Positions 1 to 23,813 of a stretch of DNA of 25,264 nucleotides are shown piece after piece. This DNA is from Fidelibacterota bacterium (GTDB lineage: Bacteria; Fidelibacterota; Marinisomatia; Marinisomatales; S15-B10). Location: assembly GCA_046861655.1 (NCBI GenBank), contig JBHIAI010000013.1:1-25264 (forward strand), given 5' to 3'. Each line of letters starts with the position of its first letter. The stretch's first letter is position 1. The translations under genes were made by a program, and so were the position numbers. Under the pieces are notes generated by a model, which was given only the letters and a program-made list of their open reading frames with translations, was not told the DNA's origin and ran no database searches.

Positions 1-1158
1 GCAGACTCCCTTGTTGTCGAATTCTATGTGAGTGGGACCCAATCCGGCGTCTATGTCCCGGGAGACATAGGTCTTATCGATGATTCTTACGCCGAATTCT
101 TCCCCTGTGAACCGTTTTTCGGCGATGGCCTGTCTCACCTTTGTGTAATCGACCATCCTGACGATAGTCGTGGCTTTTCCCCCCACCACAGCGTATCTCC
201 CTGTGGGCGATACATCCACACCGTGAGGGTTCAAAGGACACGGAACGGCATAGACTTCCACATCCCTCCATGAAATAACGGGCACGTCGGGCGCTTCCTT
301 GGTCGTAATGTACTTGCCCTCCTTCACCGCCTGACGGATGCTCTCGATATTCCAGAAGAAAATGTAGTCCTCCGGTCTTTGGAACATCCCCACGACATTC
401 GTGGATCTTTCTGTATTGTAAGCGGTGTTGACAAGCCACCCGTCCATCTCACCCCAGCCCACGCGAACCATGTCGAATTGCCAGGGACCCCACACCTGCC
501 AGGCCGTTTTCATGGTGCCATCCTCTGCGATGTCAACTCCCGTAAGGCAGGAAGCATACGGACCCTTTATTTCATCGATGTCAATGTTGAGGTATTCCCG
601 TATCTCCCTGGCGGGATACTGTTCCAGTTCGATGTTCGCTACGAGCAGGTCCGTGTTGGGACCCACGTGAGCGCCATGGATTCCCCCCTTCACGTTGGGT
701 AGCCAGATGATCTCAGCCGTGCGAAAGGTGGAAAGATCTATCCGGGCCATCCGGGCGTAGGTCTTGTCGTTGATGAAGAGCCATCGGCCGTCGTAGACGC
801 CGTCGGTCTTGCTGATGGCAGGATGGTGGGTATCGCCAGACTGTACCACCTCCCCGGTCCTGGGATTCGTTAACAGTTTCTTGACAAACGGGTTGGACAG
901 GGTCCACCCTGTGGCCGCCGTCGGTTCAAACACGGGGATTTCCTGCAATAGCTTCATGGACGGGATGCTGTAAACGTAAAGCCCACCCTGCTGTCCCCCA
1001 CTGGCGAAAACGTAGAATTCGTCGTTTTTCTGCCAGAACTGGTGGGGCATGGGATAGACTCTCTGGTATGGGTTCACTCCGGACTGTTTCTTCGGGCCAC
1101 AACCGACAAAGAACAGGCCACTCAGTACCAATAGTCCGGCTGTTTTTGTCCACTTCAT
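1..1158 (-). CDS. nosZ: Nitrous oxide reductase (NosZ family), divergent, Sec/lipoprotein signal; N-terminal beta-propeller part only, 3' end runs off the window
   Basis: Manually translated (not in ORF track): ATG at 1158 preceded by AAGGAGG; 386 codons open to position 1. MKWTKTAGLLVLSGLFFVGC (lipobox)...DEFYVFASGGQQGGLYVYSIPSMKLLQEIPVF...GDTHHPAISKTDGVYDGRWLFINDK...ARIDL...GGIHG...YNTE...NPHGVDVSPTG...GLGPTHIEFD. The five CuZ-type His expected in this part are present (H111, H112, H161, H312, H377). Confidence 0.92.
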   Translation of the reverse strand, partial: MKWTKTAGLLVLSGLFFVGCGPKKQSGVNPYQRVYPMPHQFWQKNDEFYVFASGGQQGGLYVYSIPSMKLLQEIPVFEPTAATGWTLSNPFVKKLLTNPRTGEVVQSGDTHHPAISKTDGVYDGRWLFINDKTYARMARIDLSTFRTAEIIWLPNVKGGIHGAHVGPNTDLLVANIELEQYPAREIREYLNIDIDEIKGPYASCLTGVDIAEDGTMKTAWQVWGPWQFDMVRVGWGEMDGWLVNTAYNTERSTNVVGMFQRPEDYIFFWNIESIRQAVKEGKYITTKEAPDVPVISWRDVEVYAVPCPLNPHGVDVSPTGRYAVVGGKATTIVRMVDYTKVRQAIAEKRFTGEEFGVRIIDKTYVSRDIDAGLGPTHIEFDNKGVC

Positions 1159-1194
1159 TTCTGCCTCCTTGTGATTCAATCCATAGACTGCTTC

Positions 1195-1710
1195 TCAAAC
1201 AGCCTCAACAATCAATTTGCCCCGCATCTGGTAGTGGGCCAGACTGCAGAAAACCGTGCATTCGATGGCGAATTCTCCCGGAACGGTGGCTTTGAACGTA
1301 ATCTCCTTTACCACATTCGACCGCAGGCCCGTGACCCAAATGTCGTAGGGGCCCAGAACGTGGAATCCGTGTCCGCTGAACTCTTTCAATCCCGTGATTT
1401 TCGGGAGGTCGCCGTCGTCGCCCCCTTTCAGGACAAGCTTCACGACCTGATTCTGTTTCACACGAATCACGTTCGGTTTGTACTCGGATGTGACCACATC
1501 GATAGTGATGGTGACGTCCGGGTTTCCCAGCGGGTTGGCGGGCTGCCTTGACGGTTCGGAAATCCTCGCGTACGGTCCTGACCATCGTTTCGTCCCGGGG
1601 ACAAACTCTTCTGTTTGAGCCAGCCAGCCGTCCCGTGTACAGGAAATGATACCCAGAAGCAGAATCATCACCACGGTTCCTCGGGCCGCTTTCTCCATCA
1701 TGCTATACAC
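1195..1710 (-). CDS. CuA-type cupredoxin lipoprotein (start may be ATG 1701)
   Basis: Signal peptide ending in lipobox IISC; HGF...CTVFCSLAHYQM = H...CxxxCxxxHxxM CuA ligand set; overlaps/abuts the SCO stop codon. Confidence 0.85.
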   Translation of the reverse strand: MYSMMEKAARGTVVMILLLGIISCTRDGWLAQTEEFVPGTKRWSGPYARISEPSRQPANPLGNPDVTITIDVVTSEYKPNVIRVKQNQVVKLVLKGGDDGDLPKITGLKEFSGHGFHVLGPYDIWVTGLRSNVVKEITFKATVPGEFAIECTVFCSLAHYQMRGKLIVEAV

Positions 1711-2380
1711 CCCCTTCCTGAAGCAAATGCTTGATGTCTTTGACGATTACCTCCTGCGGGTCCACCAATCCGATATACCGGTACCGGACGTTTTCATTCC
1801 TGTCTATCAGGGTCACCATGTAGCTGTGATAGACAAGATCCACACTTCTTTTTTCCTTCACGAAGACCCTGTATGCGTCCCAAACCTCTTGCAGTTCGGA
1901 TTCGCTCCCCGTCAGGAAACGCCACTTCCCTCCAAATCCCCTGGTGTATGCCTTGATCCTCTCCGGAGTGTCCCTTCTCGGGTCGGTAGTGATGAATATC
2001 AACACCAGGTCTTTTTCCACAATATCATTGAACTCCCGCTGAATATGACGGAAGTGCTGAGTCAACAATCCGCAAACATCCGGACAGCTGGTATAGATGA
2101 ATCCGATCAAAACAAGCTTCCCGTCAAAATCGCTTAGCTGGGTGACACCGTTGTCCATATCGGTGAGTGTGAAGTCGAAGGCCTTCCGGGGTTCCAAAAG
2201 TTCAATCCTTCTCACCACCTGTTTCCCGGCGACCTCGGGGTTTTCCAGGGCAGGATGTTCAAAGGTGAAAGTCTCGTTCTCACCTTCCCGGAATTGCTGC
2301 AGGGCCCTGAAGGCCAGAATGAGGACGATAACGACACCGATGACGATCAGGAGATTGAGCCGCGGTTTCATCCCTCGCAC
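1703..2380 (-). CDS. SCO1/SenC/PrrC family copper chaperone, N-terminal membrane anchor
   Basis: DFTLTD...GKLVLIGFIYTSCPDVC (CxxxC), TTDPRRDTPE, downstream His in VYHSYMVTLID; hydrophobic N-terminus. Start GTG 2380 or ATG 2371. Confidence 0.93.
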   Translation of the reverse strand: MRGMKPRLNLLIVIGVVIVLILAFRALQQFREGENETFTFEHPALENPEVAGKQVVRRIELLEPRKAFDFTLTDMDNGVTQLSDFDGKLVLIGFIYTSCPDVCGLLTQHFRHIQREFNDIVEKDLVLIFITTDPRRDTPERIKAYTRGFGGKWRFLTGSESELQEVWDAYRVFVKEKRSVDLVYHSYMVTLIDRNENVRYRYIGLVDPQEVIVKDIKHLLQEGGV

Positions 2381-2764
2381 CTATTCAACAACAACTTCCC
2401 CTTTCATCAGCATATGGTGGTCGCTGCACCACACGGAACAATAGAAAGGAAATCTCCCCTGTACGTCCGGAGTAAACGTTACCCTTTCGACCTCTCCCGC
2501 TTTTACTTCCCTCACCATGATGTCGAAGGCGGGAAGATAGAAGCCGTGCGATACCACGTCAACGTTCCTGATGACGATTCTCACTTTCTCACCCCTGGTC
2601 ACCTGGATGGTCTGGGGAAACCAATTGCCCTTGATGGGTTCGCGAGCGAGGAGTTCGACTGTGTCGGGACTCTCCCGGCTCGACTCATAAGCGAAAACTG
2701 CCCAGAGGGTTCCCAGGGAAACCAGGAGAACCAGAACGACGGCGGCAGTTTCCTGAGCACGCAT
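2381..2764 (-). CDS. Small membrane-anchored CuA-type cupredoxin (127 aa)
   Basis: Start reassigned to ATG 2764 (MRAQETAAVVLVLL..., 5 nt after the upstream stop). DVVSHGF...FYCSVWCSDHHMLMKG = CuA ligand set. Confidence 0.85.
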   Translation of the reverse strand: MRAQETAAVVLVLLVSLGTLWAVFAYESSRESPDTVELLAREPIKGNWFPQTIQVTRGEKVRIVIRNVDVVSHGFYLPAFDIMVREVKAGEVERVTFTPDVQGRFPFYCSVWCSDHHMLMKGEVVVE

Positions 2765-2769
2765 AGGAA

Positions 2770-4641
2770 CTAGGCTACAAACAGACGAACGAAGAAAATG
2801 TGGAGGCCCACGAGAAACGCGACCATGGGAATCCAACCCCTTTTTGCCTCCGCCACCGTGGCATACGTTTGCCTGGAAAACTTGAATCCGTAGTCAAGGG
2901 CAAACATCAATCCGACGATAACCAGGGACACCTGGAGGTAGGGCATTGCCCCGGTCAAAACGGGCGTCCACGGATACTTTGCCGTTCCAAACAGGTTCCA
3001 GCCCCACCCGAAAGGGTCGGATAGAATGTGGAGGAGATAGCTGCCATTGGGCAGGATAATACCGATGCTGAAGGCGCCCCATACCGCAAGGCCAACGGGA
3101 ACAAGACAGTACGAGAAGTTGACGAATGCATCTTTGATCTTGACCTCCTGGTTCTTGCTCAGTTTTCTGGACAGGTACACGAACAGGAGAAATACTGCGG
3201 GGATGAAAAGAAAATCAACGAATGTAGCTTCCGCAAGATAGCTGATATATCCACCCAATGTGGTGGCTCTGACCATATCCTTGAATTCGCCAGCGGGACT
3301 CTGGAACGCTCTGAAGAAGACCAGGAAAATCCCGAGCATGGTCAACGCCTTGAAGGCTTCATCCAACCCCCGCCTTCGAAATTTTCTGTCGGTAGGTTTC
3401 CGCTCAGCGAGGAAGTCGGCACCGAACGGCCTCAGGTTCAACGCCATATTATCGTAAGGACACGTCTTGAAACACTCCATGCACATTCCGCAGTACGTAT
3501 TGCGATTTATGTCGTAGGGCTGCTCCATCCAGGGGCAGCCGTACCCCTTTTCATTCCCCACGACACATGTTTTCGGCTTGTGCTCCTTGCAGATATCCGG
3601 ATCTTTCACGCGAACTTCACAGAGGGAAAAATTCGAATAAAGACCCTGAAACCCGCTTACGGGGCACAGAAAAAGGCAGAAGGTCCGCTTTCCGTAGATG
3701 GCGGCCACGATCGTTGCTGCTCCGATGATGAAGGACAAAAGAAGAAAGGTGGCGAAGGGTCTCACTGTGAAGAAACCGGAAAACCAGGTTGCGACGAAAA
3801 AAAGGATAACCAGGGGCCAGAGATTCCTTACTTCGTTGGGCCATCTCTTATTGAGTCCCCATGACTTCTGGCGTCCCACCTTGATCAGTTTTCCTCGCTG
3901 CAGCCAGTCGCCGAAAAGGGGAAATGGACAGACCATACACCAAAGGCGTCCGATGACAGGAACCATAACAATCATGAGGAGAACCCACCAGAGAATCCAG
4001 ACGATCATGATCCCGAAATTGTAGTTGCCTGCTGAGAGACCGCCCACGAAACCTGCCAGGAGAATGACGGCAAACACGAATAGATTGATGATGATCGGGA
4101 CAAAGGGAAACCACCTGCTCTTGAGTAAGGCGCGAACGGGTCTGTACCGGGTAAGCTCGAATCTTAAGTTCAGCGGTATGAAGCCAAACAACCTGTCGGA
4201 CCCAGCGGGATTGGGGTTCCCCCTTTTCCTGAACGACAGACCCAGGGAACCCAGACCGATGAATGCCACAAGGAAAACGCTGGCATAATACCTGGTGTTG
4301 GGCAGAACCTTCAAATATCCCACCATGTACGGGTGAAACTCCCCGCAAGTTTTTGAACAGCGGAACGTAAACTTCCCGGTCTTGTCAGCGTTGATAACGA
4401 CTTCCCTGGTTTCGCCGGGATTGACGAAGAATTCTGTCCCGTAGCCATCGAGGAAGAATCCGTGGGTGACGTCCTGGCTGATGAGTTTTATGATGAGCCT
4501 GTCGCCCTTACTGGCGGTGATGACGCTCGGGGAATAGGCAAACCGTTTTGCCCTGAGTTCGATGTGCTTGTCCCTGGCGGTGGAGGGTTCCGGGGCGCTC
4601 AGCCCCAGGACAATCACCACTGCCCACAGAATCCTTCTCAC
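2770..4641 (-). CDS. CuA-cupredoxin domain fused to NapH/NosH/MauN-like multi-pass membrane polyferredoxin
   Basis: Likely GTG start 4641 (GTGA overlap with upstream stop, GGGAGA SD). Signal peptide; DVTHGF...CSKTCGEFHPYM; then TM helices with two CxxxCP motifs (WCMVCP, FCLFLCP), CKEHKPKTC...GYGCPW and YCGMCMECFKTCP; further C-terminal TM helices. Confidence 0.85.
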   Translation of the reverse strand: MRRILWAVVIVLGLSAPEPSTARDKHIELRAKRFAYSPSVITASKGDRLIIKLISQDVTHGFFLDGYGTEFFVNPGETREVVINADKTGKFTFRCSKTCGEFHPYMVGYLKVLPNTRYYASVFLVAFIGLGSLGLSFRKRGNPNPAGSDRLFGFIPLNLRFELTRYRPVRALLKSRWFPFVPIIINLFVFAVILLAGFVGGLSAGNYNFGIMIVWILWWVLLMIVMVPVIGRLWCMVCPFPLFGDWLQRGKLIKVGRQKSWGLNKRWPNEVRNLWPLVILFFVATWFSGFFTVRPFATFLLLSFIIGAATIVAAIYGKRTFCLFLCPVSGFQGLYSNFSLCEVRVKDPDICKEHKPKTCVVGNEKGYGCPWMEQPYDINRNTYCGMCMECFKTCPYDNMALNLRPFGADFLAERKPTDRKFRRRGLDEAFKALTMLGIFLVFFRAFQSPAGEFKDMVRATTLGGYISYLAEATFVDFLFIPAVFLLFVYLSRKLSKNQEVKIKDAFVNFSYCLVPVGLAVWGAFSIGIILPNGSYLLHILSDPFGWGWNLFGTAKYPWTPVLTGAMPYLQVSLVIVGLMFALDYGFKFSRQTYATVAEAKRGWIPMVAFLVGLHIFFVRLFVA

Positions 4642-5393
4642 GGTTTCTCCCAACTTAGTTTCCGTAGGATCGCGATAGATTTCCTGGAAAAACTTTCCAT
4701 TCTTCCCCCATCCCAGAGGGCGAAGGCAACGTTGAGGCTTGTCCCCGGCTCGAACTCAAACTCCTCTCCCTGATTGCTATCAAGCCGTCTTTTGAACATA
4801 ACCGACCATTTGCCGTCCCTGTAGTCCCCTTTCCCTTCCACATTCTGTCTTGCCATGGGAGTTTGGGTTCCGGGACCGTGAGCGGTTAGTTCACGGACGG
4901 GGTTCGTCGACGTGTTGCCTTTCAGGTACCGCTCCACATTCCTGTCCGCCAGCCATTGCCAGACATTCGCCTTGTCCCCATACCCCATCATCTGGGCGGT
5001 GGCCGGTGCCTCGGCAAGGGCAAACATTATGGCACAGGCATCGGGATTCACAGGAGGTCCAAGATCCTCGGTTTTGTCGTTGAACTCCAGGAGGAAAGCC
5101 ACCTCTTTCCCGTTGTATGCCGCCCTGACCCAAATATCTTTTTCCTCGTTTCCGTAGGGTGACCTTGCCGATTGAGGATACAGGCGTATCTTCTCGGGTT
5201 CAATACCGTTCCAAAAGGGAGCATGGGGATCAAGATCGAATTCTTTGCCCACGTGAGCAACTGTGAGATTGTCCTTAGTTTCTATTTTCTCCCATTTCAG
5301 GTAAATCATGCGGTACAGGACAGCAAAGTAGACTCCCGCCAGGACAAGGGTGACCGCCAGGGTGTATGAAAGGGTCCTGTGGTGTCTTTTCAT
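4638..5393 (-). CDS. Ethylbenzene dehydrogenase gamma-subunit-like (EB_dh / DOMON) heme-b protein with N-terminal anchor (251 aa)
   Basis: Start reassigned to ATG 5393 (MKRHHRTLSY...) to remove the overlap with rrf2. Motifs VRAAYNGKEVAFLLEFNDKTED, PDACAIMF, QMMG...NVWQW, YRDGKWSVMFKRRL, VAFALWDGG...RKS are typical of EB_dh domains. Confidence 0.8.
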   Translation of the reverse strand: MKRHHRTLSYTLAVTLVLAGVYFAVLYRMIYLKWEKIETKDNLTVAHVGKEFDLDPHAPFWNGIEPEKIRLYPQSARSPYGNEEKDIWVRAAYNGKEVAFLLEFNDKTEDLGPPVNPDACAIMFALAEAPATAQMMGYGDKANVWQWLADRNVERYLKGNTSTNPVRELTAHGPGTQTPMARQNVEGKGDYRDGKWSVMFKRRLDSNQGEEFEFEPGTSLNVAFALWDGGRMESFSRKSIAILRKLSWEKP

Positions 5394-5403
5394 CTGTGAC
5401 CTG

Positions 5404-5883
5404 TCAGCCCCCGCTGTCTGAGTCAACATCCAATTCTCCAGTGTGCATGGAGGCGATGTAATCGAGCTTGGTCTGGATTTCATCACTCAACTCCGTTACC
5501 GGAGTATCCCGTAGCATCTGAATGATGATTTTTTTTGCCGAACTCCACAGGGGGTGCAGTGGACACGGATTCTCGTCCTGACACCCGGGAAATCCAACGA
5601 CACAGTAGTCGAGAAACGATTCACCATCCACGATCTTGGCCACCCGTAAAAGGGATATTTCCTCTGGAGGCTGGCTGAGGAGAAAGCCCCCCGCTTTCCC
5701 TTTCTGGGAGACGACTATGCCATGGCGGGCCAGTTGCTGAAGGATTTTCCCGAGGAAATGGTTTGGGATGTCCAGTGCCTCGGCAATATCTCTCTGCAAT
5801 ATGGGGGTGTCCGGCTGTTGAGCAGCCAGATAGATGACGGACTGAATCGCGTATTGACAGGCCTTGCTGAACAAAACAGACAT
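5404..5883 (-). CDS. Rrf2 family transcriptional regulator with Fe-S ligand motif
   Basis: FSKACQYAIQSVIYLA...IAEALDIPNHFLGKILQQL...SQKGKAGGF (Rrf2 wHTH); CVVGFPGCQDENPCPLH (Cx6Cx5Cx2H). Confidence 0.95.
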   Translation of the reverse strand: MSVLFSKACQYAIQSVIYLAAQQPDTPILQRDIAEALDIPNHFLGKILQQLARHGIVVSQKGKAGGFLLSQPPEEISLLRVAKIVDGESFLDYCVVGFPGCQDENPCPLHPLWSSAKKIIIQMLRDTPVTELSDEIQTKLDYIASMHTGELDVDSDSGG

Positions 5884-5996: not shown

Positions 5997-6839
5997 TCAA
6001 AAAACCTGGGAAAAAGGAGACAAAAAGGCTCCTGTGGCCAGTGTACCGAATACGAGAGCGTGGGCCAATTCCGTAAACCCAAAACGTGTTACGTGTAAAG
6101 AATCCTTGTCCTGCCACCGGAAAACACCGGTGAATACCTTTAGCACGAAAGGTCCGTACGCTGCGACAAACAGCCAGGAGGTCCCCTGGACCAGGGTGAT
6201 TCCCGACACAACGGCCAGGACGACAAGACTGTGAACGAGGGAAGGAAGACCGGGCCGGAATCTCCCCAGAACCGGGGGTCTGGTGGTGGAAGGCTGAACC
6301 CTGAGCTTCAGCTTTACGTAGTGTACACTTCCCGCAAAGTAAAGAAAATTGATGAGCCAAAGAAACCATCCCAGAGGATCCAGCGTCCCCTGAACGAAGA
6401 CGTAAGTCAACGGACCGGCGGCGGTCAACCCGAACACACCCATCATCTCTCCCCGTGTGGACATATGTCTGCGGTGCAAGGTCATCCTTAGGTGCAGCCC
6501 GAAGGTTGCCCCCACCAGGATTCCCAGGAGAAATCCAATCCAGACGTGGTGAATGGCCAAGAGTATGACCACGGTTCCCGCCCCTGAGCCTCCCAGGATC
6601 AGGGTCCAGACCAGGGAAGAGGGATCCACGCTCCTCCTGGACCCCCAGGCCCGCACTACCTGTCCGGCGGGACGGTGGGACAGAAACACCAGGACATAGG
6701 CCCCTGCGAGGACAGGCGATGACCAGTTCCACGGCCGGGCCACCGCAAGAGCCATGAAGGTGGGTATCAGGAACATGGCCCAGGCGCCGTGCTGCCTGGG
6801 AACAGGAAAGGGCCCTAACCGGTATGCTATCGTTCCCAC
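5997..6839 (-). CDS. YwiC-like family membrane protein
   Basis: N-terminal PRQHGAWAMFLIP signature, multiple TM helices, LYFAGSVHYVK and FGFTEL motifs; GTG start overlaps the end of pduO. Confidence 0.82.
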   Translation of the reverse strand: MGTIAYRLGPFPVPRQHGAWAMFLIPTFMALAVARPWNWSSPVLAGAYVLVFLSHRPAGQVVRAWGSRRSVDPSSLVWTLILGGSGAGTVVILLAIHHVWIGFLLGILVGATFGLHLRMTLHRRHMSTRGEMMGVFGLTAAGPLTYVFVQGTLDPLGWFLWLINFLYFAGSVHYVKLKLRVQPSTTRPPVLGRFRPGLPSLVHSLVVLAVVSGITLVQGTSWLFVAAYGPFVLKVFTGVFRWQDKDSLHVTRFGFTELAHALVFGTLATGAFLSPFSQVF

Positions 6840-7366
6840 ATTCTTTCCTCACCGCCATCTTTCATGTTCTGGTACCTGGCGGCGACGAAAAGAAAGTCGG
6901 ACAATCGATTCACGTAGGAGAGGGTGACCTCGCTGATGGGCTCAGACTTGTTCAGAGTTACAAGATTCCGCTCCGCCCTCCGGCAGACGGATCTTGCGTG
7001 GTGAAGTTGGGCCGACACGGGGGATCCTCCCGGCAGAACAAATTCCTTCAAGGGGGGCAAAGATTCGTTCCAGCCGTCCAGGGTCCTTTCCAGCCAGTCC
7101 ACGTCATCTTGGGATATCAGATGCATTTTCCGGTCCTTCACCGCCAGCTCTCCTCCCAGATTGAACAGGGTGTTTTGAACTCGCCGAAGGGGTTCGGTCA
7201 GATCTCCTGCAGCGCTGTGGGCCAGGGCAACCCCGATGGAGGAACTGATCTCATCCAGGGAACCAAGCACCCGGATCCGCGGCGAGTCTTTGTCTACCCG
7301 TTCCCCCCTGGCCAGAGAGGTCGTACCATCATCGCCGGTCCGGGTGTATACTTTGGTGATTCTCAC
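6827..7366 (-). CDS. pduO: PduO-type ATP:cob(I)alamin adenosyltransferase (179 aa)
   Basis: True start GTG 7366 (GTGA overlap with nuoN stop; GGAGG SD): VRITKVYTRTGDDGTTSL...RVDKDSPRI...GSLDE...QNTLFNLGGELA...FVLPGG...ARSVCRRAER...YVNRLSDFLFVAARY. Confidence 0.95.
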   Translation of the reverse strand: MRITKVYTRTGDDGTTSLARGERVDKDSPRIRVLGSLDEISSSIGVALAHSAAGDLTEPLRRVQNTLFNLGGELAVKDRKMHLISQDDVDWLERTLDGWNESLPPLKEFVLPGGSPVSAQLHHARSVCRRAERNLVTLNKSEPISEVTLSYVNRLSDFLFVAARYQNMKDGGEERMWER

Positions 7367-8817
7367 AGAAAAACCTCCGCTGCTTTCATGGCTCCGGTCA
7401 GCAGCAAGCTGGGGTTCACGCCTAATCCGATGACAACCGCTGCCAGAACCGCCAGAAGGAAGGCCGTCTTGCGCAGGACGAATGTGGGCAAGGCAACCTC
7501 CTCTTCCTCCATATACATCTGAACGATGATGCGCACGTAATAGTATACGGAAATCAGGGTTGTTAGGACAGCAATGACCGTAAGCCAGATGTACCCCTGG
7601 TGTACCGCGGCTGAGAAAACCGCATACTTGGCCACAAACCCTGCCGTGGGGGGAAATCCCGCCAGTGAAATCATGAACAGGGCAAGACACGCGGCCAGCC
7701 ACGGATGCCGGGAAGCCAGTCCCCTGTAGTCGTTCAAGTTCACCCCCCTTTCCCCCTTCTCTACCAGGGAAATCCCGGCGAAGGCACCGAAATTCATGGC
7801 ACAATAGACAGCCAGATAGAAAAGAACTCCGGATACTCCCCCTTCGTCCAGGACCACCACGCCCATAAGAAGATATCCGGCATGGGCCACACTGGAAAAG
7901 GCCAGCATACGCTTCACGTTGGATTGCAAAAGGGCGCTCACGTTCCCCACGACCATGGTGAGAGCAGCGAGGACCCAGAGCAGATCCTGCCAGGCACCCA
8001 CCCGGTCCGGGAAGGCTACCAGCAAGACCTTTATGAGAGTCCCGAAACCCGCTGCCTTGGGGGCGGTAGCCAGAAAGGCCGTTACAGTCGTCGGTGCCCC
8101 CTGGTACACATCCGGAGACCACATGTGAAAGGGCACCAGGGCAACCTTGAAGGCAAACCCGATGAGCACAAGCCCTATCCCCAGTGACAGAATCGTTCCC
8201 GACAGAATCTTTCCTGCAGAAAGAGCCGCCGCGATCTGGTCAAAGTTTGTGCTGCCTGTGGCTCCAAAGACCAGGGCGGCTCCGAATACAAAGAACCCGG
8301 TAGTGAAGGCTCCCAGAAGAAGATACTTAACGCCCCCTTCGTTGCTCGCAGCATCATGACGAAGGAATCCGATGAGGACGTACAGGGACAAGGACAGCAG
8401 TTCCAGGCCCAGAAAGACCATGACCAGGTCGTTGGCCCGGGTCATGAACATCATGCCCATGGTGGCAAACAGGGTGAGGGCGTAGTACTCACCCCTCAGT
8501 TCCCCCTCTTTTCGTTCCAGATACCTCTGGGCCACGAGCAGGGCGGCCGTCCCTACCCCAAGATAGAGCAGGTCGAAGAAGGCCGTATAGCTGCTCAACG
8601 AGAGCATCCCGCTGAAGAGAACCTGCTCCTGACCGAAGGTCCTGACCACGAAGTATGCGGCCCCTGCGTATCCGGCCAGACCCACAGGCAGCATGATCCG
8701 CCTCAAGGATCTTGACACCATCTCCAGGGTCAGAATGGCGAGGCAGGTCGCCAGAAGAACGATCTCTGGAAGAATCCCCCTGAAATCCGACGCCCCCGGG
8801 ATAAAGATAACGTCCAT
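7363..8817 (-). CDS. nuoN: NADH-quinone oxidoreductase subunit N (second operon)
   Basis: LGLELLSLSLYVL, EGGVKYLLLGA, FKVALVPFHMWSPDVYQGAPT, QSNVKRMLAFSSVAHAGY, SLAGFPPTAGFVAK. Confidence 0.96.
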   Translation of the reverse strand: MDVIFIPGASDFRGILPEIVLLATCLAILTLEMVSRSLRRIMLPVGLAGYAGAAYFVVRTFGQEQVLFSGMLSLSSYTAFFDLLYLGVGTAALLVAQRYLERKEGELRGEYYALTLFATMGMMFMTRANDLVMVFLGLELLSLSLYVLIGFLRHDAASNEGGVKYLLLGAFTTGFFVFGAALVFGATGSTNFDQIAAALSAGKILSGTILSLGIGLVLIGFAFKVALVPFHMWSPDVYQGAPTTVTAFLATAPKAAGFGTLIKVLLVAFPDRVGAWQDLLWVLAALTMVVGNVSALLQSNVKRMLAFSSVAHAGYLLMGVVVLDEGGVSGVLFYLAVYCAMNFGAFAGISLVEKGERGVNLNDYRGLASRHPWLAACLALFMISLAGFPPTAGFVAKYAVFSAAVHQGYIWLTVIAVLTTLISVYYYVRIIVQMYMEEEEVALPTFVLRKTAFLLAVLAAVVIGLGVNPSLLLTGAMKAAEVFL

Positions 8818-8839
8818 CTTATCTCAATTGAACCTGGAC

Positions 8840-8941
8840 AATGAAGAATACAGAATGGAGAGTGCAAAATGGAAGATGCAGAATGCAACGTGCAAAACTG
8901 TCCCCAGTTCTCCAGTACTCCATTACTCCATCTCTCCATTT
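8840..8941. repeat. Adjacent degenerate tandem arrays: 8 x 7-mer (AATGCAR-like) and 5 x 8-mer (CTCCAKTW-like)
   Basis: 8840-8895: AATGAAG AATACAG AATGGAG AGTGCAA AATGGAA GATGCAG AATGCAA CGTGCAA; 8902-8941: CCCCAGTT CTCCAGTA CTCCATTA CTCCATCT CTCCATTT. Confidence 0.85.
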
Positions 8942-8948
8942 TCCCCCG

Positions 8949-10322
8949 TCACAAGAAAAACACCCATGTGACCAGCACAAAAATGGGAATCAAAATGGGC
9001 AGAGAGTATTTCACCATGTACCCGAAGAAACTGGGCATGGGGATGTCCATTTCCCGGGCGATGGATCTCACCATAAAGTTTGGGGCGTTTCCCACATACG
9101 TATTCGCTCCCATGAATACGGCCCCGGCGGAAATGGCCAACAGAGTTCCCGCCAGGTCGGTCATGAGAAGGTTGGGGTCTCCCCCTGCCGTGTTGAAAAA
9201 CACCAGGTAAGTGGGAGCGTTGTCAAGAAAGCTCGATAGAGCGCCCGTGGTCCAGAAATAGGTGGCATTTACGGGGTTTCCCTCGGGTGTGGACACCGCC
9301 CCGATGATGGCCCTGAGGGCACCGTGCTCTCCAGCCCTCAGGATGGCGATCGCTGGAATGATGGTGACGAAAATGCCGGCGAAGAGTTTTGCCACCTCCA
9401 CGATGGGAAACCAGCTGAACTCGTTTCTTTCCCGAATCTCCCGGGCCGTCACCTTCCAGCTCACGTAGGCAAAAAACAGAAGGAGCACATCCCTCATCAA
9501 GTCCTGCAGATGGATCTCCACGTGGTAAACTTCGAAGGAAACCGGGGAATGCCACAATCCGCTCAACAACACAGAACCGATGGCACCCAGCAGGATCAAC
9601 AGGTTTATGCCTCCCTCCATCCCTAGTTTCTCGGGGTTATCCCCGTTCTCCCCGGGGTCGGGCCTGTTCGTTTCCCGTCTGTAATAGTAGGTGTCGACAG
9701 CATAGAATACCACCCAGAGAATACCGATCACCAGGAGCATAGGTTCAAGCATGGCCCTGGTGGTCCAGAAAAAATCGATCCCGTTCAGAAACCCCAGGAA
9801 AAGGGGGGGATCGCCCAGGGGGGTCAGGGAACCGCCGATATTGGCAACCAGAAAGATGAAGAAAATCACAACATGAACATTCTTCTCCCGCCACCGGTTG
9901 GCACGGATGATGGGGCGTACAAGAAGCATGGCGGCGCCCGTGGTCCCCATCCAGCTGGCCAGAACCGTTCCCACCACCAGGATGGCAAGATTCAGAGGAG
10001 GAGTCCCCGTCAAGGATCCGGTGATTCTCACTCCTCCCGCGATCGTGAACAGGGCCAGAAGCAGGATGATGAAGGGGACGTACTCAAGGAGCCCCACGTC
10101 AACCAGTTCAAAAACCACCACATCCAAACCGTACTTGAGGCTCATGGGAACAATCAACACCGCTGCCCAAAAGGCCGCTACTTTGCCGTAGTGGCGATGC
10201 CAGAACCGGGGAGCCAGCAGGGGCAAGACGGCGATGGAAAGAAGTATGCAGAGAAAGGGAATCACCCAGGGAAGCCCCAGCACTGAACCGTCCATGTGAG
10301 GGATATCCACAGGATGCTCCAT
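8949..10322 (-). CDS. IT-superfamily (ArsB/NhaD-like, CitMHS_2-type) putative Na+/H+ antiporter or anion transporter
   Basis: Many TM helices; ASWMGTTGAAMLL, ANIGGSLTPLGDPPLFLGF, LSSFLDNAPTY, GAVFMGANTYVGNAPNFMV motifs; ATG directly follows the nuoM TGA. Confidence 0.85.
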   Translation of the reverse strand: MEHPVDIPHMDGSVLGLPWVIPFLCILLSIAVLPLLAPRFWHRHYGKVAAFWAAVLIVPMSLKYGLDVVVFELVDVGLLEYVPFIILLLALFTIAGGVRITGSLTGTPPLNLAILVVGTVLASWMGTTGAAMLLVRPIIRANRWREKNVHVVIFFIFLVANIGGSLTPLGDPPLFLGFLNGIDFFWTTRAMLEPMLLVIGILWVVFYAVDTYYYRRETNRPDPGENGDNPEKLGMEGGINLLILLGAIGSVLLSGLWHSPVSFEVYHVEIHLQDLMRDVLLLFFAYVSWKVTAREIRERNEFSWFPIVEVAKLFAGIFVTIIPAIAILRAGEHGALRAIIGAVSTPEGNPVNATYFWTTGALSSFLDNAPTYLVFFNTAGGDPNLLMTDLAGTLLAISAGAVFMGANTYVGNAPNFMVRSIAREMDIPMPSFFGYMVKYSLPILIPIFVLVTWVFFL

Positions 10323-11870
10323 TCAATCGCCTCCCGGGACCGTCATCGTCCACACCGGATCATTCTCACCGGACCGGTCTACCGCCATCTCGACCTGACG
10401 GACCAGCCTGTCCACTGACGGTTCAATCTTCTCCAGAAAGGGCTTGGGATAAACACCGAGCCACACGATGGCCAGAACAAGGGGAATCACCGCCGCCCAT
10501 TCCCTGGGGACCAGGTCCACCAGTTTGGCATTCTCCTCCCGGGTGACGGGTCCAAAAAACACCCGTTCCACAAGCCAAAGAAGGTAAACAGCGGCCAGGA
10601 CCACCCCCAGGGTGGCCAGGACCACCGCCACCGGATGAACGGGAAAGGACCCCAGAAGAATGAGGAATTCTCCCACGAAGCCGTTCAGGCCCGGCAGTCC
10701 AAGGGAAGCCAGGGCCACCACGATAAAGAGGGCGCTGTAGGCAGGGATCACCTTTGCAAGGCCCCCGAAATCCTGGATCATCCGCGTGTGGCGTCGGTCA
10801 TACAGCATGCCAACAAGGAGAAACAGGGCACCGGTAGAGAGACCGTGGTTAACCATCTGAATGATGCCCCCGGAAATGCTCTTGGAGGTGAGGGAAAAGA
10901 TGCCCAGGACCACGAATCCCAGGTGACTCACGCTTGAGAAGGCCACCAAACGTTTTATGTCGGGTTGGATCATGGCCATGAGAGCACCGTAGATAATCCC
11001 AAACACAGAAAGAAAGATGATCACCGGTACCAGAGGGGGAATGGCAAGAGGAAAGAGGGGAACGCAGAACCTGACCAGACCGTACGCCCCCATTTTCAAC
11101 AGGATCCCTGCCAGGATGATGGATCCCGCGGTGGGAGCATCGGAATGGGCATCGGGAAGCCAGGTGTGAAAGGGGAACAACGGCACCTTGATGGCAAAAC
11201 TGAGGGCAAAAGCCAGAAAAAGCAGGGTCTGGACCTTGCGGGAGATCACAAGATCTTGAAGGGTCTCATAATCCAGGGTGGGAGAGCCAAACTGAGAGGT
11301 GGTGAGTGTATAGAGGTAGATGATCCCCACAAGCATCAGGAGGGACCCCAGCATGGTAAACAGGATGAACTTGACGGCTGAATATATCCTCCTGTCCGTT
11401 CCCCACACTCCGATGATAAGGGTCATGGGAATGAGCACGGCTTCCCAGAAGATGTAAAACAGGAATAGATTGATGGAGGAGAACACCCCAACCAGGGCCC
11501 CTTCCGTGATGAGAAGGGAAACCATGAATCCCTTAACTCCCCTGGTGATGCAATCCCATGAACACAGGACCGTAACCGGACCGAGGAACGTCGTGAGAAG
11601 GATGAGAAGCAAACTGATGCCGTCGACCCCCACCGAATAGTTGATCGCCCATTCCGGAATCCATGGAACCTGCTGGACAAACTGAAAGTCGCTGGTCGAT
11701 TCAAACCGGACGGTCATGATGACACAAAGGCCGAGTTCAAGAACGGTAATGGCAACCGCAATCCACTTCGCCACGCTCCCGTGGCGGGAAGGGACGGCTG
11801 CGCACAACAGGGCCCCCGCCACAGGCAGGAGGATAAGCACCGTCAGACTGTGGTCGATTACCCAGGTCAT
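10323..11870 (-). CDS. nuoM: NADH-quinone oxidoreductase subunit M (second operon)
   Basis: GVDGISL, FYIFWEAVLIP, KVPLFPFHTWLPDAHSDAPTAGS, LLKMGAYG, QMVNHGL, LGLPGLNGFVGEF. Confidence 0.97.
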   Translation of the reverse strand: MTWVIDHSLTVLILLPVAGALLCAAVPSRHGSVAKWIAVAITVLELGLCVIMTVRFESTSDFQFVQQVPWIPEWAINYSVGVDGISLLLILLTTFLGPVTVLCSWDCITRGVKGFMVSLLITEGALVGVFSSINLFLFYIFWEAVLIPMTLIIGVWGTDRRIYSAVKFILFTMLGSLLMLVGIIYLYTLTTSQFGSPTLDYETLQDLVISRKVQTLLFLAFALSFAIKVPLFPFHTWLPDAHSDAPTAGSIILAGILLKMGAYGLVRFCVPLFPLAIPPLVPVIIFLSVFGIIYGALMAMIQPDIKRLVAFSSVSHLGFVVLGIFSLTSKSISGGIIQMVNHGLSTGALFLLVGMLYDRRHTRMIQDFGGLAKVIPAYSALFIVVALASLGLPGLNGFVGEFLILLGSFPVHPVAVVLATLGVVLAAVYLLWLVERVFFGPVTREENAKLVDLVPREWAAVIPLVLAIVWLGVYPKPFLEKIEPSVDRLVRQVEMAVDRSGENDPVWTMTVPGGD

Positions 11871-13774
11871 CTCAGGAAAAGATAGAAGATCATCAGAACC
11901 ACCCCTGCCAGAAAAACGACCGCATAGGTTTGAACGACTCCGGTTTGCACCCGCCGGAGTCTTCCTGACAGCGCTCCCATGAATTTCCCTGAACCGTTCA
12001 CCAGTCCGTCAACGACCCGAATATCAAACGCCCTCCACACCCATTCGCTGGATCTTCGCACAGGTTGCACAAACAGGACGTCGTAAATCTCGTCCACGTA
12101 GTATTTCCTGGACACCAGGGTATGGAGCACCGTGAACCTGCCGGCGACTTTTCCAGGAAGGTCGGGACGTCTCTGGTAAAGAAAAAAGGCCAGTCCGATG
12201 CCTGCCGCAGCCGCCACGATAGAGAACATCATCACCATCCATTGGGGAGTCAGGGTCTCCCTTCCCAGGGCGATGACCAGCCCGGCTCCATCGGGGGCCG
12301 AATGGTGAACGAACTCACGAAACGGGTTGCCCAACCCCAGGAATTCAGGGAGGCCCACGTACCCCCCGAATACCGCCAGAAGGGCAAGAGTGATCAGAGG
12401 GGCGGTCATGACCGGACGGGCGTCGCGGGGCGCAGTCTCCCGGTCCCAGCGGGCCTGACCATGGAAGGTCAGGAACAACAAACGGAACATGTACAGGGCG
12501 GTAAGGACAGCTGTTGCCAATCCCAGGAGGTACAGGAATCTCCCGGTCCCTTGCCAGGCGTAGAGACTCCACAGGATTTCATCCTTTGAGAAGAATCCGG
12601 ACAGGAGTGGAACACCGGAAATGGCCCCTACACCTGCCAGCATGGACAGGTATGTTCGGGGCATGGAAGACTTGAGGTCGCCCATTTTCCTCATGTCCTG
12701 GTGTCCTCCCAGGGCATGAATGACCGAGCCTGCCCCGAGAAACAAGGTGGCCTTGAAGAAGGCGTGGGTCACCAGGTGAAACAGTCCCGCCGCGTAGGCT
12801 CCCATCCCCACGGCGGTGATCATGGTTCCTAACTGGCTTATGGTGGAATAAGCCAGCACTTTCTTGATATCATTTTCCGTCACTGCCATAGTAGCCGCGA
12901 GAAAGGCCGTGACCGTCCCCACGATGGTGATCACCGCGACGGTGACGGCCGAAGCGGAAAAAAGAACACCCAGCCGTGCGATCAGATAGACACCGCCCGT
13001 CACCATGGTGGCGGCATGGATCAGGGCACTCACGGGCGTGGGACCGGCCATGGCGTCGGGGAGCCAGACATACAGGGGGATCTGGGCCGATTTTCCTACC
13101 GCACCCAGGAACAGCAAAAGGCCCATGGCAGTGACGATCTGGGGTCGCAGCAGGGCGATCCTTTCCGGGACGAGGATTTCTGAGAATTCAAGGGATCCAA
13201 ACCGGGAGAATATGAGAAACATGGCCAGAAGGAATCCCGCGTCCCCCACGCGGTTTACGATGAACGCTTTCTTTCCCGCCGCTGCCTTTTCCCGGTCCTC
13301 GAACCAGTGACCGATCAGCAGGTATGAGCAGAGGCCGACCCCTTCCCATCCTACGAACAGGAGGACCAGATTGTCTGCCATCACCAGGGTCAGCATCATG
13401 AAAGTGAACAGGTTCAGAAACGCGAAATACCGCTGAAAGCCCCGGTCCCCTTTCATGTAGCCCATAGAGTAGACATGAATCAGGCATCCCACCCCCGTCA
13501 CCACCAGGACCATGATCAGCGAAACCGAATCGAGAAGGTAGGAGACGGAGATCTGGAGGTCTCCTACCCACAGCCAGGTGAAAAGCGATTGACGAAGAGG
13601 TTCGTGGGTGTTCAGGACGCTTCCGAATAGAATCGTTCCCAGCACAAAGCTCAACCCCACGGAAACGGACCCAATCAAGCCCGAGGCTTTCTCGCTCAAT
13701 CTCTTTCCCAAGAGTCCATTGAGCAGAAAGCCCGCCAGGGGAAATCCCGGGATCAGCCAGATCACAGAATCCAT
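11867..13774 (-). CDS. nuoL: NADH-quinone oxidoreductase subunit L
   Basis: GWEGVGLCSYLLIG, KAFIVNRVGD, GKSAQIPLYVWLPDAMAGPTPVSALIHAATMV, HAFFKA, KYYVDEIY. Confidence 0.97.
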   Translation of the reverse strand: MDSVIWLIPGFPLAGFLLNGLLGKRLSEKASGLIGSVSVGLSFVLGTILFGSVLNTHEPLRQSLFTWLWVGDLQISVSYLLDSVSLIMVLVVTGVGCLIHVYSMGYMKGDRGFQRYFAFLNLFTFMMLTLVMADNLVLLFVGWEGVGLCSYLLIGHWFEDREKAAAGKKAFIVNRVGDAGFLLAMFLIFSRFGSLEFSEILVPERIALLRPQIVTAMGLLLFLGAVGKSAQIPLYVWLPDAMAGPTPVSALIHAATMVTGGVYLIARLGVLFSASAVTVAVITIVGTVTAFLAATMAVTENDIKKVLAYSTISQLGTMITAVGMGAYAAGLFHLVTHAFFKATLFLGAGSVIHALGGHQDMRKMGDLKSSMPRTYLSMLAGVGAISGVPLLSGFFSKDEILWSLYAWQGTGRFLYLLGLATAVLTALYMFRLLFLTFHGQARWDRETAPRDARPVMTAPLITLALLAVFGGYVGLPEFLGLGNPFREFVHHSAPDGAGLVIALGRETLTPQWMVMMFSIVAAAAGIGLAFFLYQRRPDLPGKVAGRFTVLHTLVSRKYYVDEIYDVLFVQPVRRSSEWVWRAFDIRVVDGLVNGSGKFMGALSGRLRRVQTGVVQTYAVVFLAGVVLMIFYLFLR

Positions 13775-13775
13775 G

Positions 13776-14081
13776 TCAATCCTTCAACAGGCTAATTTCA
13801 TCTATGGTGATGGTGCGCCGGTTGCGGAACAGGGCCACGATGATACCGAGACCTACCGCTACCTCGGCAGCCGCCAGAGTCATCACGAGAAACACGAACA
13901 CCTGGCCGCTGACGCTGTCGTAATACCGGGAGAAGGCCACCAGGGCCAGGTTGGCGGCATTGAGCATCAGTTCGATGGACATGAAGATGACAATAGCGTT
14001 CCTGCGAAACAGCACTCCCAGGACGCCGATGGAAAACAGCAAACCGCTCAAGGCGATGACCTGTTCCAGAGGGACGGTCAT
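13776..14081 (-). CDS. nuoK: NADH-quinone oxidoreductase subunit K
   Basis: [33 protein letters not shown]. Confidence 0.97.
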
Positions 14082-14581
14082 GAAACCTTCCTTTTTGCCA
14101 GATACACGGTTCCGATGAGAGCCACCAAAAGAAGCAGGGAAGCGACTTCAAACGGGAAGAGGTAGGTGGAAAACAGGACTTCCCCCACCGCGGTCACACT
14201 TCCGGACGTGATGGATTCCCCGGGGGAATGAGGGATATCCATCCCCTGGATGAGGAATATGGTAACGCCGGAAAAGAAAAGGAGAATAAGAAAAAGAGAA
14301 AAGACCCTTTGAACGGTGATCAGCTTTGGAACGGCTTCCTCCCTGCCCACATTGAGCAACATGATAACGAACAGGAAAAGGACCATGATGGCCCCGGCGT
14401 AGATGAGGATTTCCAGTACGGCCAGGAAATAGGCCTCCAGAAGTAGGTACAGAACGGAAAGGGAGAAAAAGGTACCCACCAGAAAGATAGCGCTGTGGAC
14501 GGGATTCTTGTTGAGAACGACCAGGAGTGCGCACACAAGGGTGACAACCGAGGCGATGTTGAACAGAAGGTCAGGCGACAT
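14078..14581 (-). CDS. nuoJ: NADH-quinone oxidoreductase subunit J
   Basis: [43 protein letters not shown]. Confidence 0.96.
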
Positions 14582-14604
14582 ACGCGATCCAGGCGTGGGA
14601 TATC

Positions 14605-15135: not shown

Positions 15136-15139
15136 GGTT

Positions 15140-17793: not shown

Positions 17794-17799
17794 GGCGCG

Positions 17800-21330: not shown

Positions 21331-21407
21331 TTAGGTGGCGGGAGCGTGGAAGTAGGAGTGCAGGGTTCGAACAGAATCGAATCTACAAGCCAAAAGATGA
21401 GGCGATT

Positions 21408-21878
21408 TCAAGGCGCGACCCCCTTTTGGATGGACCGCTGCAGTTTCAGCAGGCCGTCCAGGACACCTTCCGGCCGGGGGGGACACCCGGGGACATACAT
21501 ATCCACGGGGATGAATTGATCCACCCCCTGAATCACGCTGTAGGTATCGAACACACCCCCGCTGGAAGCACAAGCGCCCATGGATATCACCCATTTGGGT
21601 TCAGGCATCTGCTCATAGATCCGGGTGAGTACAGGCATCAGTTTAATGGTGATTCTGCCCGCCACGATGAGAAGATCGGATTGGCGGGGCGAGAACCGAA
21701 TGGCCTCGGCACCGAACCGGGCAATGTCAGATCGGGCCGCCAGCAATGCCATGAGCTCGATCCCGCAGCAGGCCGTGCCGAAGGGCATGGGCCACAGGGA
21801 ATTCTTTCTGCTCCAGCGGATAGCCCCTTTCAGGGTGGTGGTCAAAACGTTGGATTTGATGTCGCCTGTCACTCCCAT
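21408..21878 (-). CDS. nuoB: NADH-quinone oxidoreductase subunit B
   Basis: [45 protein letters not shown]. Confidence 0.97.
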
Positions 21879-23807: not shown

Positions 23808-23813
23808 GGGGCT

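Follow-up and report, generated by a model that had tools for sequence, protein, structure and literature searches.

The window, i.e., the whole stretch of DNA analyzed here, is 25,264 nucleotides long and makes up the entire contig C171 (JBHIAI010000013.1) of a Fidelibacterota genome (assembly GCA_046861655.1), hereafter G000. Here, we report that a gene on its reverse strand (2770..4653) is predicted to encode a CuA cupredoxin fused to a NapH-like membrane polyferredoxin, and that it lies in an operon together with a divergent nosZ. The open reading frame (ORF) gives 627 amino acids from a TTG start at 4653; the database copy (P0001) has 623 amino acids and corresponds to 2770..4641, with the start at 4641. 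The assignment combines Pfam and NCBIfam matches, homologues, and an AlphaFold2 model of the whole protein (predicted local distance difference test, pLDDT, 84.7; predicted template modeling score, pTM, 0.88). Briefly, the protein begins with a signal peptide or N-terminal anchor (residues 1-26, 4576..4653) that has a positively charged N-end and a hydrophobic helix at residues 2-17. It is followed by the cupredoxin domain (residues 27-118, 4300..4575), one transmembrane (TM) linker helix (residues 120-142, 4228..4296; AlphaFold2 model and lysine plus arginine counts), a NapH-like core with four TM helices and a cytoplasmic iron-sulfur (Fe-S) domain (residues 184-424, 3382..4104), and a C-terminal extension of five TM helices (residues 430-626, 2776..3366), all on the reverse strand. 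An earlier sequence-only reading of this DNA had proposed the same arrangement, i.e., a signal peptide, a CuA domain at about 4300-4575, a TM linker and a polytopic Fe-S domain, and the Pfam matches, the AlphaFold2 model and the motifs all agree with it; residues 27-118 occupy precisely nucleotides 4300-4575.

Pfam finds Cupredoxin_1 (PF13473) at residues 11-111 (35.1 bits, cut-off 27), COX2 (PF00116) at residues 52-110 (24.4 bits, cut-off 22) and Fer4_5 at residues 217-256 (29.5 bits, cut-off 22), and the CuA ends of the NCBIfam models for NosZ and CoxB match residues 30-124. The cupredoxin carries the pattern H64-x34-C99-x3-C103-x3-H107-x2-M110, whose residues line up one by one with the CuA ligands of Thermus ba3 CuA domains (6pty_A, E 5.8e-10). 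In a set of 53 homologues, H64, C99 and C103 never vary; for H107 and M110, conservation is 90% or higher. The modeled domain superimposes on the CuA domain of NosZ (1fwx) with a root-mean-square deviation (rmsd) of 1.4 Å over 93 columns (Foldseek, E 4.8e-06) and on 7deg_E with 1.5 Å over 93 aligned residues (VIA, Z 14.5, the VIA Z values ranging from 14.0 to 14.5). Like CuA domains of the COX2 type, it thus appears to have the cupredoxin fold and the full ligand set, and it is unlike them in being tethered to a polyferredoxin. We also considered that the protein might be an oxidase subunit II; this was ruled out, as no heme-copper oxidase subunit I family was found by Pfam among the neighbors scanned, namely in the window operon and the rest of the window, in 15 chosen loci and in the flanks of loci L089, L010, L011 and L013.

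The topology was derived from the AlphaFold2 model and the positive-inside rule. Lysine plus arginine residues number 9, 9 and 18 in the inside loops 143-183, 235-278 and 320-429, and 0, 1, 2 and 1 in the outside loops 204-212, 298, 452-465 and 546-569. This places the CuA domain outside and the Cys motifs together with the Fe-S domain (110 residues with 18 lysines and arginines) inside, with ten TM helices beyond the signal peptide or anchor; the five of the C-terminal extension lie at residues 430-451, 466-499, 517-545, 570-596 and 600-626, and 546-569 is a conserved periplasmic loop. The counts rule out a cytoplasmic CuA domain, which had been named as something that would overturn the earlier reading. 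Taken together, residue patterns, alignments and topology confirm the N-terminal domain as a putative CuA cupredoxin with a complete ligand set that faces the periplasm.

On the cytoplasmic side, two Cys-Pro motifs are invariant: C239, C242 and P243 after TM3 (3925..3939), and C326, C330 and P331 after TM5 (3661..3678). Two CxxxCP motifs had been proposed; the second is indeed of this type (residues 326-331), but the first is a CxxCP (C239-M-V-C242-P). Similarly, of the ferredoxin motifs that had been noticed (ligands at 3457..3591), one is a canonical CxxCxxCxxxCP at residues 388-399 (C388-x2-C391-x2-C394-x3-C398-P) but the other is degenerate, C355-x2-H358-x4-C363-x9-C373-P. By sequence, solved relatives were found for the cupredoxin only and none for the membrane part, and searches with the whole model (Foldseek, VIA) matched only the cupredoxin domain as well. 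When the membrane part was folded alone (residues 171-627, pLDDT 88.1), the best Foldseek hit had an E value of 0.32 and the best VIA hit a Z of 7.0 (rmsd 3.1 Å, 95 aligned residues), both to generic helix bundles. Please note that the absence of a solved match does not show that the fold is new.

The gene sits in an operon read on the reverse strand, with gene overlaps and short gaps. At its head is an Rrf2-family regulator (5404..5883; Pfam and NCBIfam) that is conserved in loci L010, L011 and L013. It is followed by an EB_dh-type heme-b protein with an N-terminal TM anchor (4638..5393); its ORF is open to 5486, and M32 is the likely start, the homologue matches beginning at residue 32. This protein scores 102.6 bits with Pfam EB_dh and 108.8 bits with DMSO_red_II_gam, under the cut-off of 169.85 for the latter. 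In the alignment to EbdC (2ivf_C), its Met and Lys coincide with the Met and Lys that we take to be heme ligands there, and its best solved match is 7b04_C, subunit C of nitrite oxidoreductase. Downstream of the fusion gene lies a partner CuA cupredoxin of 127 amino acids with an N-terminal TM anchor (2381..2764; ORF open up to 2836), whose ligands H73, C109, C113, H117 and M120 are invariant in 34 homologues. Then come a membrane-anchored SCO1/SenC copper chaperone (1703..2380; Pfam, 101 bits) and a second small CuA-type cupredoxin of 171 amino acids with a lipobox-like signal (1195..1710), seen in nosZ-linked operons only; its CxxxCxxxHxxM motif and lipobox were judged by eye. The last gene, interrupted by the contig end, encodes the N-terminal 393 amino acids of a divergent NosZ of the Sec/lipoprotein type (1..1179). 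The remainder of nosZ is on contig C150 of the same genome (L089:1-777), followed by a fusion of a transglutaminase core with an AhpC/TSA domain (503 amino acids) and a 182-amino acid protein that belongs to no known family (L089:799-2860); sensor-kinase genes lie beyond the latter. In Pfam scans, no product of the window operon matched a cytochrome c family, ApbE, NosX or NarGH-type alpha and beta subunits, nosZ occupying the place of the last; no NapG-like product was apparent in the same scans either, although no search was aimed at NapG.

The fusion could in principle be an assembly artefact of what are normally two genes, as the sequence-only reading itself had cautioned. This is ruled out by the extent of the family. 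Homologues of the protein number 922 at E ≤ 0.001. Among the matches listed, the 119 other than P0001 itself all have E ≤ 6e-204 and 49-77% identity; most of them are 600-660 amino acids long with the same Pfam pair, cupredoxin plus Fer4_5, in line with the domain-architecture check that had been suggested. Their hosts include Acidobacteriota, Aminicenantes, Longimicrobiales, Endomicrobiia, Lentisphaerae and Undinarchaeales. In contigs representing one genome per species, at least 530 relatives were confirmed among 600 pattern matches; our locus sample is the best 80 of these, kept as 79 loci, and is therefore biased to the nearest kin of the window. Taking a single open frame from the CuA motif into the membrane part as the criterion for each locus, 44 of the 79 are fused and 33 split, and two are interrupted by a contig end. 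The split forms break in the cytoplasmic loop after the linker helix (residues 143-183). In addition, Logan contigs from three runs of one study span the cupredoxin, TM and NapH-like junction with no insertion or deletion; they are not independent support, since the runs may include the source sample. The window DNA itself was found in four sequencing runs of one hydrothermal-vent study, and no RNA run carrying it was listed in the run search. The 44 fused loci from many phyla and the junction contigs together confirm the fusion as a natural variant; the split form is also common. Larger fusions occur as well: in P0068, a natural triple fusion, a cupredoxin and Fer4_5 are joined to a thioredoxin-like (AhpC/TSA) domain, AhpC/TSA plus Fer4_5 is shown in P0075 and P0107, and P0093, known from a single contig only, combines a cupredoxin with Fer4_5, Fer4_20 and Pyr_redox_2.

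The window genome carries a split paralogue, too, on contig C35 (L103:1455-3916), where a cupredoxin with a TM helix, a polyferredoxin and another cupredoxin follow one another; the polyferredoxin is 41% identical to residues 169-627 of the fusion protein. This paralogue sits downstream of a CarboxypepD_reg-like protein and a 278-amino acid protein with no Pfam match. Apart from it, no Fer4_5 gene (NapH, NosH or NosR type) was found elsewhere in the window genome.

Which family does the membrane part belong to? The NapH/MauN model (TIGR02163) matches 52 of 55 family members, weakly, with a best E of 1.4e-12; the window protein itself reaches 19.9 bits over residues 224-404 against a cut-off of 213. 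Like NapH (TIGR02163, PRK09477), the protein has a core of four TM helices, cytoplasmic Cys-Pro motifs after TM helices and a cytoplasmic ferredoxin-type domain. It differs from NapH in that its first motif is CxxCP, one of its cluster motifs is degenerate and five extra TM helices are present; moreover, the periplasmic partner of NapH is the Fe-S protein NapG, whereas that of the window protein appears to be CuA. With the NosR model, the window protein gives no match at E ≤ 0.01, and 6 of 55 relatives match weakly (best E 0.0011). No family binding flavin mononucleotide (FMN) is found by Pfam at the N-terminus; the cupredoxin is there instead. The CcoG model matches none of the 55 members at E ≤ 0.01, although a distant kinship through Fer4_5 may exist. 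The protein is like CcoG/FixG in being a membrane polyferredoxin of the Fer4_5 type associated with copper enzymes, and unlike them in having a putative CuA center of its own and no visible C-terminal immunoglobulin-like domain. FMN-headed NapH-like systems have been described in which an extracytoplasmic head is mounted on a NapH-like anchor and which are proposed to work with oxidases and reductases (PMC8238504, in the part available). NosR and these systems share with the window protein a redox head outside the cytoplasm that is carried by a NapH-like membrane and Fe-S body, as well as, in the window, the nos-operon context, and the FMN-headed systems also share the modular use with different periplasmic oxidoreductases; the head of the window protein, however, seems to be a binuclear copper domain rather than a flavinylated FMN-binding domain. 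The sequence-only reading had called the protein a copper NosR analogue. What holds of this name is the position in a nosZ operon, the redox head on a NapH-like anchor and the lack of any other Fer4_5 gene save the C35 paralogue; kinship with NosR does not hold, and the family is not specific to nos clusters, as the following shows.

The genomic context was read by tblastn of the window proteins against the 79 loci (E ≤ 1e-5), with queries for the alpha subunit, beta subunit and chaperone of type II dimethyl sulfoxide (DMSO) reductases taken from loci L026 and L018 (E ≤ 1e-8). A CuA cupredoxin is encoded immediately downstream in 69 of the 71 loci with at least 0.5 kb there. Among the 45 loci of at least 50% identity, EB_dh is found upstream in 36 of 39, SCO1 within 3 kb in 8 of 45 and NosZ in 3 of 45, and an alpha subunit of the type II DMSO reductases is present in 24 of the 29 that have at least 6 kb of upstream sequence (L011, L012, L022, L034 and L077 are those that lack it). 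Pfam scans were made of 15 loci, picked for spread and long flanks. Locus L018 has the molybdopterin alpha subunit, the Fer4_11 beta subunit, the Nitrate_red_del chaperone and EB_dh all confirmed, and L017, L021, L026, L042 and L071 have the same parts minus one or two that were missed or cut by the ORF calls; these calls, being the longest non-overlapping ORFs, are crude, and they missed or mis-stranded the L021 beta subunit, the EB_dh gene of L071 and the gene that follows nosZ on C150. These loci show a conserved cassette of the heme-b EB_dh protein (in the closer relatives), the fusion protein and a second membrane-anchored CuA cupredoxin. The sequence-only reading had overlooked the second cupredoxin and the heme-b partner.

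The 34 loci below 50% identity have no EB_dh, no molybdoenzyme and no NosZ, and a downstream cupredoxin is present in 30 of 32. Their neighbors suggest copper handling, with genes for NosL, DUF411, resistance-nodulation-division (RND) efflux and PCYCGC proteins nearby. Locus L060 has two NosL genes and an ABC ATPase, and L067 has DUF411 and RND efflux pumps. L056 has a PCYCGC protein, its halves are separated by a DUF1573 immunoglobulin-like gene, and a cupredoxin-cytochrome c fusion is encoded downstream; in L053 the gene between the halves encodes a rubrerythrin.

The same module has been seen before in split form. The nar operon of Methanoperedens reads NarG, NarH, NarJ, Orf7, HCO II, NapH and HCO II, all highly transcribed; its NapH-like protein has nine TM helices, five of them additional and C-terminal, and an unusual membrane-bound nitrate-reducing complex was proposed there for biochemical testing (PMC4683180, in the accessible part). 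In 2026 the cluster was still described as a non-canonical nitrate reductase, judging from the available text on the basis of genes and transcripts only, and cooS genes adjoin it in Methanoperedens BLZ2 (PMC13079737). Our sample includes a Methanoperedens metagenome-assembled genome (MAG, locus L077) with a split copy that is 50% identical over residues 152-627 and has cupredoxin genes on either side. In this locus (L077:8499-11869), the cupredoxin and polyferredoxin genes are separated by an FrhB/FdhB-like gene of the F420-dependent beta-subunit family, and multihaem cytochrome genes follow the second cupredoxin. Judged by sequence, the window protein is the fused form of the Methanoperedens 'HCO II plus NapH-like' pair: the order of heme-b EB_dh or Orf7, CuA cupredoxin, NapH-like protein with five C-terminal TM helices and second CuA cupredoxin is the same. 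In the window, however, the first cupredoxin and the NapH-like protein form a single polypeptide, NosZ takes the place of NarGH as the catalytic partner, and SCO1, the lipoprotein CuA cupredoxin and the thioredoxin-like fusion are added. The EB_dh protein of the window also has a TM anchor, whereas Orf7 of Methanoperedens is listed with no TM helices in the part of the report available (PMC4683180).

Some members may already have been met under another name. DPANN 'nosZ-like' proteins of up to 617 amino acids were reported to have CuA but not CuZ and, when tested in a Pseudomonas nosZ mutant, did not lead to significant consumption of N2O, as far as the accessible part of the preprint tells (10.1101/2023.10.30.564641). 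An Undinarchaeales MAG in our sample (L071) has a 617-amino acid member (P0106) after the alpha subunit, beta subunit and chaperone of a type II DMSO reductase, and we infer that the DPANN proteins belong to the CuA/NapH-like fusion family. Annotation pipelines call such proteins 'nosZ-like' because of the CuA domain.

The link to nosZ is known in only five genomes, a small group centered on Fidelibacterota, namely those of the window, L010, L011, L013 and G004. L010 is a MAG of the Fidelibacterota that is the same as one genome from the window's order, L011 is the same contig as G206, from the window's class, L013 is labeled Spirochaetaceae, and G004 (L129, G004:C136) belongs to the same genus as the window. 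The common order is Rrf2 (where upstream DNA is present), EB_dh, fused protein, cupredoxin, SCO1, lipoprotein cupredoxin, NosZ, thioredoxin-like fusion and the 182-amino acid gene. Wherever a nosZ-linked operon could be followed to its end (L010, L011, G004), the last two stand behind nosZ; in L013, where only the transglutaminase-core plus AhpC/TSA fusion was scanned for, it is present behind nosZ. We regard both products as candidate maturation factors. The fused gene is patchy, occurring in 5 of 61 genomes of the order sample, the window's included. In G004, the fused protein and the partner cupredoxin are 54% and 50% identical to those of the window, and the other operon genes 64-79% (SCO1, lipoprotein cupredoxin and NosZ 73-79%); from this difference we conclude that the fused protein and its partner were exchanged as a unit.

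A quick maximum-likelihood tree of the membrane part was built with a midpoint root from 72 rows, comprising 70 of the 79 loci plus the window and the C35 paralogue; L022, L031, L037 and L069 (stops or X) and five loci with a shortened match were left out. The four nosZ-linked rows fall in one starred clade of 11 rows (100*) together with five molybdoenzyme-linked rows, and this clade is nested in a clade of 39 rows (99*) that is otherwise molybdoenzyme-linked, with Methanoperedens basal. This fits a history in which the cassette, with its now 'orphan' gamma-type heme-b subunit, would have been recruited from a Nar-like operon to nosZ. The direction of the move is not proven by such a tree, because the root was not inferred.

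The NosZ encoded in this operon is unusual. On the Sec-type NosZ model (cut-off 625), its two pieces in the window genome score 282 and 202 bits and its full-length homologues 498 and 482 bits. It keeps all seven CuZ histidines and the CuA motif, as judged by eye from the L010 protein aligned to 9f8x_A and from the translated window and C150 sequences. NosL (PF05573) was found in none of the five genomes with a nosZ-linked operon, and NosD (TIGR04247) was above the cut-off in none of them (best 40 bits against 300); completeness is 92.8% for G000 and 93% for G004. The Pfam NosD domain (PF05048) is unspecific, matching ORFs of 617 to 2052 amino acids and control genomes as well, and TIGR04247 with a positive control was used for this reason. 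The control comes from a sample of 201 genomes of the phylum, in which a canonical NosZ exceeds the cut-off in 32, NosD being matched in 30 of them as well; there was no NosD match in the window genome or in the two other genomes of that sample with a divergent NosZ. The divergent NosZ suggests that these operons are nos clusters of a separate kind. It is not certain that this NosZ reduces N2O, because these genomes show no NosD or NosL.

How might the cupredoxins work together? In the predicted complex of the fusion protein with the downstream cupredoxin, the score was 0.73, against 0.00 for the best of three controls. The mark that we apply to this score is passed by 116 of 157 solved complexes and by 2 of 215 mismatched pairs, which makes it a rough guide, since our own alignments were used. 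At least 82% of the contacts agree between the runs, and the partner has a pLDDT of at least 80. Residues 111-115 of the partner (its CuA loop) lie against residues 101-107 of the fused CuA loop, the partner's TM helix packs on TM2 (residues 184-199), and both cupredoxins rest on the conserved outside loops 204-211 and 546-559. The downstream cupredoxin is thus predicted to dock on the fusion protein with CuA loop facing CuA loop.

We consider it rather probable that the fusion protein is a two-CuA membrane electron-entry module that feeds NosZ. Menaquinol would be oxidized near the periplasmic face, its two electrons being taken up by the two CuA centers; two one-electron centers side by side over a conserved periplasm-facing surface suit the uptake of two electrons from a quinol. 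The electrons could then pass via the heme-b protein, the lipoprotein CuA cupredoxin or both to the CuA of NosZ, and from there to CuZ, the site of N2O reduction. In some relatives, a cytoplasmic donor may instead deliver electrons via the Fe-S domain; we lean only slightly toward quinol as the preferred donor. In the nosZ-linked lineage, a module from a type II DMSO-reductase operon would in this way replace NosR, NosGH and cytochrome c.

Several observations weigh against this electron-entry role. The literature searched holds no biochemistry of any family member. The Fe-S clusters and Cys motifs are cytoplasmic and CuA is on the opposite side, and no conserved His pair for a heme or another membrane-bridging cofactor is visible in the homologue alignments; because no such bridge is seen between the cytoplasmic Fe-S and the outside CuA, the electron path and the donor are guesses. 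The role of the cytoplasmic Fe-S domain is as unexplained as it is in NapH and NosR, and this is the weak point of the model. The FrhB-like gene of L077, the P0093 fusion and cooS in BLZ2 hint at a cytoplasmic donor over quinol. Upstream of the L011 operon, genes for a Rieske protein with cytochrome b and for multihaem cytochromes c could encode another feed for NosZ. The lack of NosD and NosL in the nosZ-linked genomes, and the NosL, DUF411, RND efflux and PCYCGC neighbors of the distant relatives, count on the same side.

There are other ways to read the locus. The protein may act as NosR does in maintenance, so that a small flux keeps the CuZ or CuA of NosZ active or repaired and a bc-type complex with a soluble carrier brings the bulk of the electrons. 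This proposal builds on the roles of NosR, and the two would share the same logic, an extracytoplasmic redox head on a NapH-like anchor of the class already described (PMC8238504, in its accessible part); it also agrees with L011, where genes for Rieske/cytochrome b and cytochrome c lie upstream of the nosZ-linked operon. In 24 of 29 loci, however, the enzymes served by this cassette are type II DMSO reductases, which lack CuZ, the window operon encodes no cytochrome c, and the extra lipoprotein CuA cupredoxin beside nosZ resembles a carrier for bulk flow, so we find a maintenance role unlikely. A biogenesis factor for copper sites seems to us a little more unlikely still. It would be a CcoG-like cupric reductase or thiol reductant that draws on cytoplasmic reducing power and, together with SCO1 and the thioredoxin-like protein, supplies Cu(I) or reduces the CuA cysteines. 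Genomes with no NosD or NosL would need another copper route, SCO1 adjoins in 8 of the 45 close loci, the fusions P0068, P0075 and P0107 join AhpC/TSA to Fer4_5, and the distant relatives have the copper-related neighbors named above. On the other hand, SCO1 is missing from 37 of the 45 close loci, where a second CuA cupredoxin is nearly always present, none of the 55 members matches the CcoG model, the protein's own domain has the complete conserved ligand set of CuA, i.e., of an electron-transfer site and not of a chaperone, and the triple fusions are equally well explained by a chaperone for the fusion protein's own CuA site.

It could also be that the module serves a type II DMSO reductase encoded elsewhere in the genome and that its place beside nosZ is a leftover of operon rearrangement. 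EB_dh is the gamma-subunit family of these reductases, alpha-subunit fragments are present on contigs C112 and C143 of the window genome, and the nosZ-linked copies nest in the DMSO-reductase-linked clade of the tree. We nevertheless judge this very improbable: the operon order is kept in five genomes, with Rrf2 at the head wherever upstream DNA is present, the overlaps and short gaps in the window favor one transcript, and the alpha fragment on C112 has an EB_dh gene of its own adjoining it. Least probable of all, and hardly to be expected, is a reverse flow in which electrons from a periplasmic oxidation enter the quinone pool or the cytoplasm. Type II DMSO reductases do include oxidizing enzymes, the best solved match of the EB_dh protein being a nitrite oxidoreductase subunit (7b04_C), and NapH-like systems are proposed to work with oxidases too (PMC8238504, as above); but the only catalytic partner in the window is NosZ, a reductase, and the Methanoperedens cluster serves nitrate reduction in the available parts of both reports (PMC4683180, PMC13079737).

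Returning to the electron-entry module, a wider picture can be drawn, which we offer tentatively and consider less probable than the core proposal. The operon might provide a self-contained N2O respiration that uses neither cytochrome c nor NosDFYL, with menaquinol oxidized via two facing CuA centers, a chain of copper and heme-b carriers to NosZ, and SCO1 and thioredoxin-like helpers that build the copper sites of NosZ; in many uncultured phyla, the module might likewise connect periplasmic Nar/Nxr-like molybdoenzymes to the membrane.

In the literature searched, which covered few subscription journals and no supplements, neither the fused protein nor its link to nosZ is described; only the Methanoperedens papers, the survey of flavinylated systems and the DPANN preprint touch on the subject. 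Two elements are already known: the module in split form beside NarGH, from genomes since 2015 (PMC4683180), and the principle of a head on a NapH-like anchor, from FMN-headed systems (PMC8238504), each as given in the available part of the source. As far as the same literature goes, what is new is the wide natural occurrence of the fused form, the pairing of one CuA with the other that is predicted here, and the move of the cassette to a divergent NosZ whose operon has no cytochrome c, NosR/NosGH or NosDFYL. The family is large, with its at least 530 relatives in the one-genome-per-species contigs, and it bears on how periplasmic reductases with no cytochrome partner are wired to the membrane, both the Nar/Nxr-like type II DMSO reductases of uncultured phyla and atypical NosZ; it should be of interest to those working on N2O and nitrate respiration. 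A nos cluster of a separate kind matters for the N2O consumers at hydrothermal vents and for nosZ counts in surveys. As the copper head and the Fe-S anchor are on one polypeptide, the fusion protein is a convenient target for expression, spectroscopy and cryo-electron microscopy.

The rest of the window lies upstream of the nos operon and is also encoded on the reverse strand. A complete complex I (nuo) operon occupies 7363-25257, and a quinone pool is expected because it adjoins. A CitMHS_2-type transporter gene (8949-10322) is inserted between two antiporter-like subunit genes of the nuo operon, two more Proton_antipo_M genes stand at its upstream end (22314-25257), and a gene for a YwiC-like membrane protein (5997-6839) is located between the complex I operon and the Rrf2 regulator.

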